Below are positions 18,031 through 24,276 of a stretch of DNA of 24,276 bases, piece by piece; within the stretch, counting starts at the first letter, position 1; the number at the start of each line of letters is the position of its first letter. The notes below the pieces were generated by a model, which worked only from the letters and a program-made list of their open reading frames with translations, did no database searches and was not told where the DNA came from. Source of the DNA: Nitrospirota bacterium (GTDB taxonomy: Bacteria > Nitrospirota > Nitrospiria > JACQBZ01); assembly GCA_016198945.1 (NCBI GenBank), contig JACQHO010000048.1, positions 1 to 24,276 of the forward strand. The letters are read 5' to 3'. The translations under genes were made by a program, and so were the position numbers.

Positions 18031-20730
18031 TTATGACGATACCGTCTCTTTCCGGATAAACCGCTTGCGGAATTCTTCCAGGACCAGCATTCCGGCGGCG
18101 AAGGGAATCATAAAAAGCCAGACCTCCGGCACAATCGGGGCCGTGCCGAAAATCTGATTCCCCCACGGCGTGTAATCAATCAGCAGGATCAAACCGATCT
18201 CGGCCGCGATCCCCCACAGGATGAACGGGTTGCTGAAGAACCCGAAAGAGAATACCGATTCGTGATCACTCCGGCATAAAAAGACGTTCACGACCTGCAT
18301 CACGATGATCGCGGAGAGACAGGCCGTCGTGGCCTGTAAATAAAGGGGATCATTCCAGGCCAGCGCCTGTCCGAATTGCCACCCGCCCCGGTGAAGAACA
18401 AAGAGGAAGGCCGCCATGGCTGCAACGGCCTCCAAGACCCCCAAAAAAAGATACGCCCGAAAGATCAGCGCCCGGTTCCACAGACGCTCCTTGGAAGAAC
18501 GGGGCGGCCTCTTCATCAGCCCGGGCTCGGGCTTCTCCACCCCCAGTGCGAGGGCCGGCAGCATGTCCGTTCCCAAATCCACCGCCAGGATCTGTATGAT
18601 CGTCAGGGCCAATGGCAACTTGACCAGCGCAAAGGCCAGGTACGGCGCCAGCTCGGGAATGTTGGAGGTCAGAATATAGGTGAGAAATTTCCGGATATTG
18701 GAAAAGACGGCGCGGCCTTCTTCAATCGCGCCGACGATGCTGGCGAAGTTGTCGTCCAGAAGGATCATATCGGACGCTTCCCGCGCCACATCCGTTCCCG
18801 TGATTCCCATCGCAATCCCGATATCGGCCCGCTTCAGCGCCGGCGCATCGTTCACCCCGTCTCCCGTGACGGCCACGACTTCCTTCTTGCGTTTCAAGGC
18901 CTCGACGATCCGCATCTTCTGATCCGCGCCGACGCGGGCGAAAATAATCTCAGGAGCATCCAGGGCCAACTGGAGCTGGGCGGGGGAAAGCCGCTGGAGC
19001 TGATCCCCGGTAATGATCGTCGGCAACGCGGATTTGACCAGACCGATCTCGCGTGCGACGGCCAACGCGGTATGGGGATGGTCACCGGTCACCATGATCA
19101 CCTTGATCCCGGCCTCTTCGCATTTCCGAATCGCGCCGGGCACCTCCGGGCGGGGAGGGTCCTCAAGCCCCACGAGCCCGGTCAGGATCATCTCTTCCTC
19201 CAGATGGAGACGGTCATGCCCCTCTGAAACGGGACGGCAGGCAAAGGCCAGAACCCTCAAGCCACCGGTCGCCATCGTCTCCTCGGCGCGTAGGAAGCCG
19301 TCTTTCAAATCCGGGGTGAGGGGTTGAATATCTCCATTCCGCAGAACCCGACGGCAGAGCGGAAGAACCGTTTCCAGCGCGCCTTTTGTATAAAGAACCG
19401 ATCCGGGAGATTTCTTATGAAGAACGGAAAGCCTTTTTCGATCCGAATCGAACGGAACTTCGTCCAACCGAGGATAGTCCTCAAGAACCGGGATCGCCTT
19501 TTTGGCCATCTCGACCAAAGCGACCTCCATGGGATCCCCCGACAGTTCCTCCCTTCCATCTTTTTCGATCTTTTTGAGGTTGTGGCAGAAGAGCGCTGTT
19601 TCAAAAAATTGTCGGTGGGTATCCTGTAGGGGCGCACGGCCGTGCGCCCCTACATCGGAAGGAACATAAAACCGATCATCGAGATAAAGCCTTTTCACCG
19701 CCATACGATTCATTGTGATCGTACCCGTTTTATCGGTACAGATCACCGTGGCCGATCCCAATGTTTCCACGGACGGGAGATGTCGGATCAAGGCGTTTCG
19801 TTTCGCCATTCGTTGAGAGCCCATCGCCAGGGCCAGGGTGACGGTCGGAAGCAGTCCCTCGGGAACATTGGCGACAATGATGCCGATCGCAAAGATGAAG
19901 TTCTGCCAGAACGAGAGTCCGAGGGCCTGCCCGATAAAAAAGAAAGCAACGCCCAGGCCCGTCGCCAGCAGGGCCACCATGCGGCTCAGGCGAATGATCT
20001 CCTTCTGGAGGGGGGATGGGACTTCTCCCTGGGTCTGGGTCAGGTGGGCGATCCTGCCGAACTCGGTATGCATCCCGGTGGCAAAAACCAGGGCCCGGGC
20101 CTGGCCCGAGACAACCGAGGTGCCGGCCAGCAGAATGTTTTTGCTCCGGATCAGTTCTTCTCTATCGCTGGGATGGATCTCCCGGGCCTTCGGCAACGAT
20201 TCGCCGGTGATCGTGGCATTGTTCACACGGACCCCGAAACCCTGGACCAACCGGCAGTCGGCCGGAATCGCATCCCCTTCCGCCAGAAGAATCAGGTCGC
20301 CGGGGACCAACGCCGCCGCCGGGACCTGGATCACCTTGCCGTTTCGGAGCGCCTTGACCTGATGGGGAAGAATCTTTTGAAGGGCCGCAATCGCCTTCTC
20401 GGCCCGATATTCCTGCCAGAACGAGAACAATCCGTTGATCAGGATCACGCCCAGGATCGCAAAGCCCAGCGTCATCATCCCTTTTCCCGGATCATTCCAT
20501 TCGGCTATAAAGGCCAGACCTGCCGCGAGTAAGAGGATCACGGCAAAAAAATGGGTGAAGCCCTTCAAAAAACGGAGGATCAGAGGCTCCGCCCGTATTT
20601 TCTCGACGCGATTCGGACCGAACTCCGTCAACCGCCGGGCCGCCTCCTCCGTCGAAAGGCCTTCGGGACCGCTGTGGAGACTCTGAAGGGCCTCCTCCAC
20701 TGTGAGATGATGAATTTTCATCGCCGTCAC
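18031..20730 (-). CDS. Cation-transporting P-type ATPase, P2C (Na,K-ATPase)-like
   Basis: Motifs [58 protein letters not shown]. Start is GTG 20730 (GTGA overlap with the hydrogenase stop) or ATG 20721. Confidence 0.93.
19625..19654. repeat. Perfect 30-bp GTAG-type REP-like palindrome inside the ATPase coding sequence
   Basis: TGTAGGGGCGCACGGCCGTGCGCCCCTACA is its own reverse complement. It is read in frame as [10 protein letters not shown]. Confidence 0.85.
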
Positions 20731-22037
20731 TCAGACTCATAATGCAGTCGCAGAAAATGCGTCGCGCATGAGATGCACGGATCGTAATTGCGTATAGTTT
20801 GCTCGCACCGCAGTCCCAATTCTTCCTTGGACAGGCCGATATTCGACTGCACAAACCGCCGCAGATCGCTTTCGATCATCGCCTGATTCTGCGACGTCGG
20901 CGGAACGATCTTCGCTTCCTGAATGATCCCGTTCTCATCCACCCGGTAACGATGATACAGAATGCCGCGCGGGGCCTCGGTGCAGCCGGCGCCCGTTCCG
21001 GCACGGGGCCGGACCGGAACCGCCGGCGTCTCCGGCATTTCGTAGCCCCCAATGATTCGAAGCGCCTCGTCACAGGCATAGAGGATCTCGACGGATCGAA
21101 CGACGACGCTGCGGAAGGGATTGCGACAGACCGGTGAAAGGCCGGCCGACCGGGCCGCCTCCTGCGCGAGCGGCGAGAGCCGGTCAAAGTTGAGGCTGTA
21201 ACGGGCCATCGGGCCGACCAAATAGCCGCCCTGCCCGTCCGGCAGGCGGGCCCGGTTCTTGAACCGGGAATGCATCGCATGGCTGTGCGGCACCTGTTCC
21301 TCGATGAACTCATTCTCGTAGTCCCGCGTCGAAATCGTCAGACCCCGGTTCGAAACAAGACGGCCTTCGTTAAACGGATATTCGAAGGGATGGCGCAGCG
21401 ATACGAATTCATAGTCCTGTTCGAATTCCGGGAACGGCAGCACGGCGGTCCACCGAACCAATTCAAGAGCGGCGTCCCGCGCCCACTTGAGCCGCTCCGA
21501 AAGCGGGGCGAGCTCGCGTTTTGTCGGAACTTTATAGAACCCGCCGACACGGACATTGATCGGGTGGACTTCCCGCCCGCCGAGAAGCGCGATGATTTCG
21601 TTCCCCGCCTCCTTCAGCCGGAGTCCCCGCTCGACGACCCCGGGATGGTCCTTCGCCATTTTGAAGCCGTCGGGATAGCCCAGAAAGTCCGGGGCGTGAA
21701 GCATGACGACATGAAGCGCATGACTTTCGATCCACTCGCCGCAGTAGATCAGACGGCGAAGCGCGCGGAGCGGACCCCCCACCTCGATGCCGAAGGCGTC
21801 CTCCATCGCATGGACCGCGCTCATCTGGTAGGCGACCGGACAGATGCCGCAGATCCGGGCCGTGATGTCGGGGGCCTCGGAAAAGGACCGCCCCCGCAGC
21901 AGCGCCTCGAAAAAGCGCGGCGGCTCAAAGATCTCCAGCCGGACATCCACGACCGTGCCGCCCTTGATCTTCAGATAGAGCCCGCCCTCGCCCTCGACAC
22001 GGGCGAGGCCGCCCACCTTAATCGTTCCGTTTTTCAT
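20727..22037 (-). CDS. hyhL: Group 3b [NiFe]-hydrogenase large (alpha) subunit
   Basis: Start MKNGT at 22037. Motifs ARVEGEG, L1 [23 protein letters not shown]2 DPCISCATH followed by a 9-aa C-terminal extension. Confidence 0.95.
21230..21268. repeat. Two adjacent hairpins inside the hydrogenase large subunit gene, one a REP-like 21-bp element
   Basis: CCTGCC-CGTCC-GGCAGG (21230-21246) followed by CGGG, then CCCGGTTC-TT-GAACCGGG (21251-21268, perfect 8-bp arms). Bases 21231-21251 encode ARLPDGQ. Confidence 0.65.
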
Positions 22038-22806
22038 GCTTTTCACTTTCTTTGCGAAACGCCTCGGCATGGGCGTTGACGCCGCGAAAGACTTGCATGA
22101 TTTCCCGTTCACCCGCGCCGAGACGGCTCCATCCCCGGCTCAACGCGGCCGTGTTCGGCGTCTCCTTCGGGCCGAAGCAGCCGTAACAGCCGCGGTCATA
22201 CGACGGACAGATCGCGCCGCAGCCGGCATGGGTGACGGGGCCGAGGCAGGGCGTGCCGTGCGCCACCATTACACAGACATTTCCTTTGAGTTTGCATTCG
22301 ATGCAGACGCTGTGGGCCGGCACATTCGGCCTGCGTCCGTTCAGCAGGGCGACGATCACTTCAAGCAATTGCCGTTTGTCGATGGGGCAACCGCGGAGTT
22401 CGAAATCCACGGGAACGTGATCCGCGATCGGCGTGGAGGTCTCGAGCGTCTCGATATAGTCCGGACGGGCATAAACGATCGAAACAAATTCCTTGACGTC
22501 CTTGAAATTCCGGAGTGCCTGGATGCCGCCGGCCGTCGCGCATGCGCCGATCGTAATGAGGACCTTTGATGCGCGGCGGACTTGCTGAATACGCTTGAGA
22601 TCCTGCGGCGTCGTAATCGAGCCCTCCACCAACGAAAGATCATACGGACCCTTCACCACCGCGCGAGAGGCCTCGAGAAAATGGGCGATCTCGACCCGTT
22701 CGACCAGGGCCGGCAGCTCGTCCGTGCAATTGAGAAGACTCAACTGGCAGCCGTCGCAGGAGGCGAATTTCCAGACGGCAAGTTTCGGCTTTTGATTTTT
22801 CCTCAT
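22018..22806 (-). CDS. hyhS: Group 3b [NiFe]-hydrogenase small (delta) subunit
   Basis: Motifs [26 protein letters not shown], and distal cysteines [19 protein letters not shown]...CYGCFGP. Confidence 0.94.
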
Positions 22807-22807
22807 C

Positions 22808-23638
22808 TCAAATCTCGCTGGTTCCGAACCATTCCTTGATCCGATCGTACCGGAGCACCGGCCCGTCCTTGCAGATGAAGGCCGGCCCGAACTGGCAATG
22901 CCCGCAGAAACCGACGGCGCATTTCATGTTTCGCTCCAATGACAGATAGATCCGGCCCTCGGCCAGTCCCTGCGCAAGCAGGTCCCGCACCGCATGCCGC
23001 ATCATGGTCTCCGGACCGCACATCATCACGATGCTTCTATCGGGGTTGATGCGAACCTGCCGGAAAAGATTCGTGACCACGCCGACATTGTATTTCCATT
23101 CACGGTCCGGATGATCCACGGTAAGGTAAACCTCCGTATCCGGATGTTTCTGCCAGGCATGAAAGCGCGCGCGGTAGAGCAGATCCTTCGGGGTCTTGAC
23201 CCCGTGGAAGATCTTGAGATTGCCGTAGCGGTCGCGCCGGTTGGCGACATAATTGATTACCGAGATGACGGGGGCGCAGCCCAGTCCGCCCGTGACGATC
23301 ACGACATCCTTGCCCGCGGCCTCTTCCAACGGCCATGAGCTCCCGTAAGGCCCCCGGAGGCCGACCGTATCGCCTTTTTTCAGGCCGACGAGAGCGGCCG
23401 AGACCTTCCCGACGATGCGGATCGTGTGGTCCAGAACTCCCGATTCGTCCGGGTCCGAAACGATCGAGATCGGAACTTCCCCCGCCCCAAAGACATAGAG
23501 CATGTTGAACTGCCCCGACCGAAACCGATAGGATCGCCGGACCGCTTCATCCCGGAGGCGAAGACGCAACGTATGCACCCGCAGGGCCTCCCGGCGCTTC
23601 CCGATCACCTCCGCCGCATGGGGAATCCACAGGTTCAT
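22808..23638 (-). CDS. hyhG: Group 3b hydrogenase gamma subunit (FAD/NAD(P)-binding, [2Fe-2S])
   Basis: True start MNLW at 23638 (ATGA overlap with the beta stop). Motifs [53 protein letters not shown]. Confidence 0.93.
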
Positions 23639-24276
23639 TTCTTTGTCTCCCGGATGGCGCGGACCTCTTCGGTGATGTCGATCGCGACGGGACACCACGT
23701 GATGCACCGGCCGCAGCCCACGCAGCCCGATGTCCCGAACTGATCGATCCACGTCGCCAGCTTGTGCGTCATCCATTGGCGGTAGCGCGACTTGACTGAG
23801 GGCCGGACGGTCCCGCCGTGGACATACGAGAAATCCGACGTGAAGCAGGAGTCCCACTTCCGCCAGCGCTCGGCATGCTCTCCGGTCAGGTCCGTCACGT
23901 CCTCCACCGTTGAACAAAAACAAGTCGGACAGACCATGGTGCAGTTTGCGCAGCTCAGACAGCGCGTCGCGACCTCATCCCATCGCGGGTGTTCCAGATT
24001 TTGATACAGCAGGTTTTTGATATCGGTCGTGTCCAGAGTGCGGCCCATTTGAGACGCCGTCGCCGCCACAATGCGCTCGACCGCCGCACGATCCTTCTCG
24101 GTCGCTTCGGTATGCGGCAGGTCGCGAAGCACCTCCGCGCCCCGTTCCGTACCGGCTTCGACCGTGAAGGTGTGCCGGCCGGACTCCAGAACCTCGGTCA
24201 GCGCGAGATCAAATCCGGCCGTCGCCCTGGGTCCTGTTTTCATCGAAACGCAGAAGCAGGTTCCGCCGGCCTGACC
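23635..24276 (-). CDS. hyhB: Group 3b hydrogenase beta subunit, 2x[4Fe-4S] (C-terminal part; runs off the right edge)
   Basis: The frame stays open to 24276 ([12 protein letters not shown]...). Motifs [40 protein letters not shown]. Confidence 0.93.

Follow-up and report, generated by a model that had tools for sequence, protein, structure and literature searches.

A 21-bp palindromic repeat, probably a very short mobile element, inside a [NiFe]-hydrogenase gene of a Nitrospirota bacterium

The hydrogenase gene and its insertion

The DNA analyzed here, called the window, is the stretch of 24,276 nucleotides (positions 1 to 24,276, forward strand) of contig JACQHO010000048.1 from the Nitrospirota assembly GCA_016198945.1. 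On its minus strand lies the gene for the large (alpha) subunit of a cytosolic, group-3b-type [NiFe]-hydrogenase (20727-22037, 436 aa, ATG at 22037; a longer open reading frame (ORF) covers 20727-22112), and inside this gene is an imperfect 21-bp palindrome, CCTGCCCGTCCGGCAGGCGGG on the plus strand (21230-21250), which is read on the minus strand as residues 263-269, ARLPDGQ. We refer to the 21-bp element as E21. Its boundaries are uncertain by 1-2 nt, with G/C letters on the flanks, and the placement 21231-21251 is equivalent. The 21 bases can fold with a 6-bp stem, CCTGCC/GGCAGG, or with 8-bp arms that include one G-T and one C-A pair and enclose the loop TCCGG. Adjoining them is an 8+2+8 palindrome, CCCGGTTC-TT-GAACCGGG (21251-21268), which supplies the host codons S-R-F-K-N-R; at the empty sites of three related genomes it is partly present in one (G006) and absent in two (G003 and G007), and it is native coding sequence outside the element. 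The RNA fold of 21215-21285 had z = -1.45, which is unremarkable as a lone hairpin.

The residues ARLPDGQ are missing in all 32 of the closest database homologues (alignment A1, 73-91% identity), the best of which read HSRFKNR-GAYLVGP across the insertion site, and the alpha chains 9nez_D and 5yxy_A of sulfhydrogenase 1 (SHI) have an 8-residue gap opposite the insert. A codon-level DNA alignment with the orthologues of G003 (88-90% identity), G007 (81-83%), and G006 (80-81%) showed a single clean 21-nt gap. Moreover, a groundwater metagenome contig (run X3, record 18) with 21 mismatches over 21103-21600 (~95.6% identical) has exactly 21 letters fewer at the site, which runs X1, X2, and X4 span as fragments only and without bearing on the insertion; therefore, the insertion is younger than about 4% DNA divergence. 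A reading of the window made beforehand from its letters alone (the sequence-only reading) had claimed a clean seven-codon insert in the large subunit, folding as CCTGCC/GGCAGG and abutting an 8-bp hairpin; both folds are present in the sequence, and the in-frame insertion was confirmed by the alignments.

Five more distant homologues (P0020, P0026, P0034, P0040, and P0107) have unrelated insertions of 4-14 residues only 1-2 positions downstream, and therefore the loop tolerates extra residues. In an AlphaFold2 model of mediocre quality (mean predicted local distance difference test score, pLDDT, 66.9), residues 263-269 lie in a non-regular segment with pLDDT 45-58. Homologues tolerate other insertions in this loop, and we therefore infer that the hydrogenase is still functional with the insert.

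The host gene itself is intact. It matches Pfam NiFeSe_Hases (3e-27), and the nickel-binding CxxC motifs RICGICP (N-terminal) and DPCISCATH (C-terminal) are invariant across alignment A1. In NCBIfam it comes nearest to two sulfhydrogenase alpha subunits, ShyA and HydA, but its scores fall below the equivalog cut-offs, so that the subunit is related to ShyA/HydA without being an equivalog; the closest solved structures are the Pyrococcus/Thermococcus SHI alpha chains named above (~4e-64). Three further minus-strand genes of the same operon, assigned from Pfam and ORFs, lie upstream of it: the small subunit gene (22018-22806, Pfam Oxidored_q6), the FAD/NAD-binding gamma subunit gene (22808-23923), and the Fe-S beta subunit gene (23635-24276), truncated at the window end. 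This four-gene order (large, small, gamma, beta) is the group 3b layout, and the three marks of a group 3b large subunit, namely both CxxC motifs, SHI/SHII alpha relatives, and a four-gene operon, were all found.

E21 as a repeat family of the genome

The exact 21-mer is present in three copies (contigs C14 and C93, and the window) in this 1.6-Mb, 69%-complete metagenome-assembled genome (MAG), here G000, where the chance expectation from base composition is ~6e-6. Sites with at most 3 mismatches numbered 18 vs 1 in the control, and the degenerate family pattern CCHGCCYG-NCCGG-CRGGCRGG (8-nt arms, 5-nt loop) had 14 matches vs 0 in the reversed genome. It is this repetition in the genome, and not the hairpin itself, that places E21 beyond chance. 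One of the 18 sites, C95:5636 (3 mismatches), was rejected as a copy, being a native conserved ClpB motif, GRLTDGQGRTVDF.

About ten copies in G000, the hydrogenase included, lie in frame within Pfam-verified genes, the other hosts being ispH/lytB, recG, gatB, aroA, lptF/G, polA, a dihydrolipoamide-dehydrogenase-like gene, a response-regulator/GAF histidine kinase gene, and the gene of a 1021-aa VWA protein. Other positions are the 3' end of ileS, the interval between two sulfatase genes, and the region upstream of obg. Nested copies occur in C14, C93, and C163, and the copies in C10 and C152 sit within the loops of a GTAG-type repetitive extragenic palindrome (REP), GGGGCGGTT^CGCGAACCGCCCC (the caret marks the insertion point), of which 13 are empty and 2 filled at the centre. 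E21 itself ends in CCYG...CRGG with no terminal GTAG/CGTC, and CGTC appears only inside the loop region of one subtype.

The suspicion of the sequence-only reading that the 21 bases were a short dispersed repeat, of a family distinct from a GTAG palindrome 1.6 kb away, was borne out: the 21-mer is not unique, and the two sequence families are separate in G000. Among the peptides that it named for such repeats, PARPAGG and (A)RLPDGQ proved to be two of the three dominant readings described below, and LPAGQAG-type readings occur in gatB and lpd of G000. That GTAG palindrome, at 19625-19654 of the window, is of REP type and is translated within a P-type ATPase gene (18031-20730, minus strand); it belongs to a family other than E21. 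Further palindromic families of G000 are GGGGACAGATTTSAAATCTGTCCCC (~26 copies), GTAGGGGCGYACGGCCGTRCGCCCCTAC (~20), TCCGCCTNAGGCGGA (~17), AAGGTGACAGGCACCT (~15), and GGGGCGGTTCGCGAACCGCCCC (~13), with example sites of these other families at C131:3215, C131:5148, C83:2482, and C83:3238; two of the four Y1 transposase genes of G000 are flanked in REPtron fashion by the GGGGACAGATTTSAAATCTGTCCCC and AAGGTGACAGGCACCT families.

The seven residues might instead be a native, lineage-specific hydrogenase loop, whose DNA would resemble E21 by chance or through convergent selection for a functional motif; the loop is indeed variable, and homologues have insertions nearby. However, the 21-mer is letter-identical at unrelated loci, far above the chance count given above, and it is absent from the 88-90%-identical orthologue and from the ~96%-identical environmental allele, by which this explanation is already contradicted, and we give it practically no credence. 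The hydrogenase insert would be a recent copy of a selfish element in a permissive loop; that is, we consider it highly probable that 21230-21250 is a recently inserted copy of a 21-bp non-autonomous, hairpin-forming mobile element, E21, translated as a seven-residue loop extension.

Filled and empty sites in related genomes

Among the 41 genomes of the class that were sampled, 13 contained the E21 pattern, against one match among 82 control cells. The copy numbers were uneven, with 26 in G007, 20 in G014, and 16 in G006, and with 1 and 0 in G001 and G002, the congeners of G000. The same codons were found empty, singly filled, or doubly filled. In gatB, LPAGQAG stands at the same codon in G000, G006, and G007, and the site is empty in G001-G003; ispH is empty in G001-G003 as well, with one 21-bp copy in G007 and a 42-bp nested pair in G000 and G006. 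In recG, G001 is without either copy, G006 has an older E21-like copy, and G000 and G007 have a second copy inside its loop. The polA gene has an outer copy in G000 and a nested pair in G006, and aroA is filled in G000 only. Alignment to G000 of the flanks of 38 additional loci, drawn from G006 and G007, gave nine further clean indels, ~42 bp long where the copy was nested and 21 bp where it was single. The net insertion was exactly 21 bp and the flank was duplicated in none of the aligned filled/empty pairs; therefore, E21 makes no target-site duplication.

Distribution across phyla and phages

In a scan of one genome per species for the exact 21-mer, E21 was found in at least 120 genome stretches from ~18 phyla. 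The matches listed include the cultured Bacteroidota Flavivirga, Flavobacterium soyangense, Mucilaginibacter, Aequorivita, Flagellimonas, Muricauda, Maribacter, and Zunongwangia, many Patescibacteria, and Planctomycetota, Nitrospirota, Ignavibacteriota, Bacillota, Elusimicrobia, Acidobacteriota, Chloroflexi, Chlorobiaceae, Synergistales, Marinimicrobia, Omnitrophota, Zixibacteria, Margulisiibacteriota, and several proteobacterial classes. The flanks of the cross-phylum copies are unrelated and often AT-rich. Single genomes can hold many copies: Mucilaginibacter sp. PPCGB 2223 has 30, an Elusimicrobia MAG 10, Flavivirga sp. 57AJ16 9, and a Saccharibacteria genome of 0.6 Mb 5; a copy number of 4 was also recorded. 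The richest was the Bacillota MAG Th196P1bin11 (G046, 3 Mb) with 83 copies; 82 match the master sequence letter for letter, and faithful copying from that sequence is therefore indicated.

E21 is also carried by 19 viral contigs of IMG/VR. In the prophage contigs of Th196P1bin11 (L242, IMGVR_UViG_2820306284_000004, and its sisters L228, L229, L232, L233, and L241), the density reaches ~1 copy/kb, with copies in terminase, portal, tape-measure, and sheath genes.

Reading frames of the genic copies

The 21-mer is stop-free in all six frames and its length is divisible by three; therefore, E21 cannot disrupt a reading frame. A frame tally by ORF length is unreliable in GC-rich Nitrospirota, which have long overlapping ORFs on both strands, so that only Pfam-verified genes were considered there and the frame statistics were drawn from low-GC genomes. 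In genomes with <50% GC, 55 of 106 copies lie in long ORFs, and these 55 are read as RLPDGQ (21), PARPAGG (16), PPAGRAG (12), LPVRQAG (3), PACRTGR (2), and CPSGRR (1), a clear skew from equal use (chi-square ~38, 5 degrees of freedom). The readings rich in Cys/Arg, two in number, hardly occur, and the ten Pfam-verified genic copies in G000 avoid them too. This indicates that genic copies are probably translated and filtered by selection on the peptide, and the skew therefore argues against excision of the insert at the RNA level.

Two further cases of genic copies were observed. In a Chitinophagaceae MAG (L174) and a Mucilaginibacter MAG (L202), E21, read as PARPAGG, interrupts the motif SFGD^YFK at an identical position of an ORF of ~920-990 aa, by this motif a candidate alanyl-tRNA synthetase. 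In a Sphingobacteriaceae MAG (L191), three E21 copies occupy the equivalent position in three repeats of a 359-aa ORF (gv[yf]r/yy[dn]-ARLPDGQG-k), either by duplication of an E21-bearing repeat or by recurrent insertion.

Target-site preference

For each copy we removed the 21-mer and scored whether the flanks formed a perfect stem of at least 6 bp around a loop of at most 6 nt. By this test, 10 of the 56 Nitrospirota copies had been inserted at the centre or loop of a hairpin, vs 1.0% of random positions; the proportion was 16% vs 0.9% across phyla and 27% vs 1.9% in G046. About 20 of the 56 Nitrospirota copies are nested in another, often imperfect, E21 copy, and GTAG REP loops serve as hosts in other genomes too (L072 and L192). 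These counts show that E21 lands preferentially at centres of local dyad symmetry, namely its own loop, GTAG REP loops, and other hairpins. In G046, ~20 of 79 copies, about a quarter, lie at the loop-stem junction of one GTAG REP, GTAGGGGCGGATAWTA^TCCGCCCCTAC; 82% of the junctions in this genome are purine^pyrimidine, and the flanking bases are complementary in 65% vs 25% expected.

Direct repeats of at least 6 nt flank 17% of the copies across phyla vs 4% of controls, and in other phyla E21 is found within short tandem arrays, mostly of heptamers (L093, L164, L178, L190, L207, and others), a context that was not seen in G000. The sequence-only reading had suggested that the element targets the base of existing stem-loops, with the neighbouring hairpin at 21251-21268 as its target. 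This was not supported, in that a perfect stem of at least 6 bp abuts 3 of the 56 Nitrospirota copies (5%) vs 2.1% of random positions, and the neighbouring hairpin, which G003 and G007 do not have at their empty sites, is nothing more than the host codons for S-R-F-K-N-R. Of its expectations for a genome-wide search, repeats in frame within genes were found and an enrichment beside hairpins was not.

Two other groups of insertions were noted. TC^CGCC insertions (L095, L137, L145, L175, L194, and L208, in Saccharibacteria, Chlorobiaceae, Planctomycetia, Gammaproteobacteria, and Zixibacteria) lie mostly inside a TCCGCC-N3-GGCGGA hairpin, where two hairpin families interleave. In Elusimicrobia RA.bin92 (L130), CGTCATTCCCGCGAAA^GCGGG(G/A)ATCC hairpins that match the Neisseria NTS/Ssn-related motif hold two E21 copies in their loops, and a Y1 gene lies 2.3 kb from E21.

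Search for a mobilizing partner

One alternative is that E21, which is of REP size, is an ordinary REP or REPIN (a doublet of REPs) and owes its multiplication to a Y1 HUH enzyme, the REP-associated tyrosine transposase (RAYT), which recognizes the folded single-stranded hairpin. G000 has four Y1_Tnp genes, two of them flanked by other palindromes and REPtron-like, so the cell does have the machinery; REPs inside genes are on record (PMC3733652); and the frequent copies in GTAG REP loops might travel with those REPs. However, E21 is without a terminal GTAG/CGTC tag, and no copy was found within ~1.2 kb of Y1 genes in eight genomes (4 genes in G000, and 15 loci in G001, G005, G006, G007, G014, G016, and G023). 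Y1 genes are present in 37 of 41 relatives irrespective of E21, and a Y1 search gave no match in G046, with its 83 copies, or in the Saccharibacteria genome, with its 5. Cross-phylum identity is also unlike the lineage-specific, vertically inherited REP-RAYT pairs, as described in 10.1101/2022.05.22.493013. The RAYT link was rejected because no Y1 gene is flanked by E21, Y1 and E21 do not correlate across relatives, and G046 has no Y1 match, and we regard this origin as improbable. Compared with REP/REPIN-RAYT systems (Bertels and Rainey 2011, PMC3116915), E21 has in common that short hairpin repeats act as non-autonomous mobile DNA, and G000 hosts such systems; in size and repetition it is a 20-40-bp imperfect palindrome like theirs, yet it has neither the terminal tag nor the REPtron, forms nested copies and not inverted doublets, and occurs in genomes with no Y1 match.

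A second alternative is that E21 spreads through an RNA intermediate and reverse transcription. This route has reportedly been proposed for the small dispersed repeats (SDRs) of cyanobacteria. E21 resembles these in size, hairpin, self-nesting, and heptamer arrays, and many of its copies lie in transcribed regions. Against this, a search for RVT_1 found no match in G014, G016, G023, or any of the eight family-f1 genomes, among them G006, which is 99% complete and has 16 copies, and G007, which has 26; both orientations relative to the host gene are common. The reverse transcriptase link was rejected, as none was found in E21-rich Nitrospirota, and we consider the RNA route very improbable.

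The Ssn nucleases, with their Ssn-related hairpin motifs NTS/dRS3 (Chenal et al. 2025, PMC11893778), offer another comparison, as they pair a small nuclease that acts specifically on single-stranded DNA with 20-50-nt hairpin repeats, and E21 of L130 sits in NTS-like hairpin loops. E21 differs in having no 5' CGTC tag, and an ssn gene flanked by hairpins was not seen: a small GIY-YIG (Ssn-type) gene was not found in G000, G007, and G014, and none adjoins E21 in the Bacteroidota isolates G041 and G042. The Ssn/GIY-YIG link was rejected on this ground, the gene being absent or not adjoining E21. Among enzyme candidates on the E21-dense prophage contigs, we recognized only structural genes, a Dam-like/GNAT protein, and an antirepressor.

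The absent target duplication and the failure of three tests to find a partner gene would also suit an explanation with no dedicated transposase: host enzymes would break the DNA at hairpin tips or slipped repeats, and repair would then capture E21 or copy it as a template, the source being an abundant hairpin oligonucleotide or an ectopic copy. The targets, namely hairpin loops, cruciform centres, and heptamer arrays, are break-prone structures. Nevertheless, host repair leaves unexplained that an imperfect 21-mer, with its two stem mismatches kept, is identical in ~18 phyla, and it accounts neither for the origin of free copies nor for 82 of 83 identical copies in G046. On balance it seems unlikely to us, though less easily set aside than the reverse transcription route.

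Comparison with known repeats

The closest analogue of E21 is the SDR class. In an account attributed to Elhai et al. in 2008, Nostoc SDRs are said to be hairpins of 21-27 nt that nest in themselves, lie in HIP1 or heptamer arrays, and have an unsettled mechanism. Common to both are the length of 21-27 nt, the hairpin, self-nesting, insertion in other palindromes, and heptamer arrays, and neither has a transposase of its own or a known mechanism. SDRs are reported to be confined to Nostocaceae, with SDR5 inserted into HIP1 (PMC5861425), whereas E21 is found in ~18 phyla, in cultured Bacteroidota, and on prophage contigs, as far as the two are compared by description. They also differ in that, in low-GC genomes, roughly one E21 copy in two is an in-frame insertion in a gene, and in that the E21-rich Nitrospirota are without reverse transcriptase.

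Selfish palindromes read in frame as extra loops of housekeeping proteins are known from Rickettsia palindromic elements (RPEs) and from intragenic GTAG/CGTC REPs, which have a GTAG or CGTC tag at one end (Di Nocera et al. 2013, PMC3733652; PMC10969869). Hosts of such intragenic repeats include DNA repair and replication genes and tRNA synthetases (PMC3733652), and E21 likewise has recG, polA, ileS, and gatB among its hosts, and probably alaS in other genomes. RPEs differ in being 100-150 bp long and Rickettsia-specific, whereas E21 is 21 bp, cross-phylum, and self-nesting; intragenic REPs differ in their terminal GTAG/CGTC tag, which E21 does not have, and in being mostly extragenic as a class. 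[quoted passage not shown] A literature search for the 21-mer or its peptides returned one unrelated word match only.

Proposed mode of movement

Because of the target pattern, the absent target duplication, and the copy fidelity, we propose a single-strand joining model for E21. The element would move as a folded single strand, and this strand would be joined into the single-stranded tip of an extruded hairpin, either on the lagging-strand template or in a cruciform; we put this route forward tentatively, at somewhat short of an even chance. Whether the joining is performed by a trans-acting enzyme, possibly phage-borne and other than a classical RAYT, reverse transcriptase, or Ssn nuclease, seems to us about evenly balanced. 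The broadest form of the proposal, that E21, identical in ~18 phyla and in phages, is moved by an undescribed structure-directed mechanism without a dedicated element-encoded or RAYT-type transposase, is a possibility that we would sooner doubt than assert.

Several points weigh against E21 as a structure-directed mobile element. Its mobility rests on comparative patterns and not on a witnessed event, and the Y1/RAYT, reverse transcriptase, and Ssn tests found no mobilizing gene. The insertion site in the hydrogenase gene is not at a hairpin centre, with a flank stem of 3 bp, and the translation of the insert is deduced, not observed. The junctions vary by lineage, R^Y making up 82% in G046 and C^C being commonest elsewhere and in the window; therefore, the targeting rule is statistical, or the exact boundaries are uncertain. 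Further, G000 and the genus g4 have filled sites in common (gatB, ispH, recG, VWA, and polA) that are empty in the closer relatives G001 and G002, which would require that one lineage lost its copies precisely and genome-wide or that insertion recurred at the identical positions.

Significance

By what means very short palindromic repeats multiply has long been an open question, and no mechanism is known for the SDR class. E21 lends itself unusually well to its study: its 21-nt master sequence is fixed, relatives show identical codons empty, singly filled, and nested, one genome has 83 copies, prophage copies are dense, and cultured hosts would permit direct tests of movement. E21 appears to be among the smallest mobile DNA elements known, and, if its movement is indeed structure-directed and transposase-free, it would be the smallest broadly distributed mobile DNA known. 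Essential enzymes, among them the hydrogenase, IspH, GatB, AroA, RecG, and probably AlaRS, repeatedly gain the same heptapeptides, and these recurrent heptapeptides bear on annotation, on alignment-based phylogeny, and on the evolution of protein loops. If the proposal is true, E21 would be a general means by which essential proteins gain seven-residue loop insertions.

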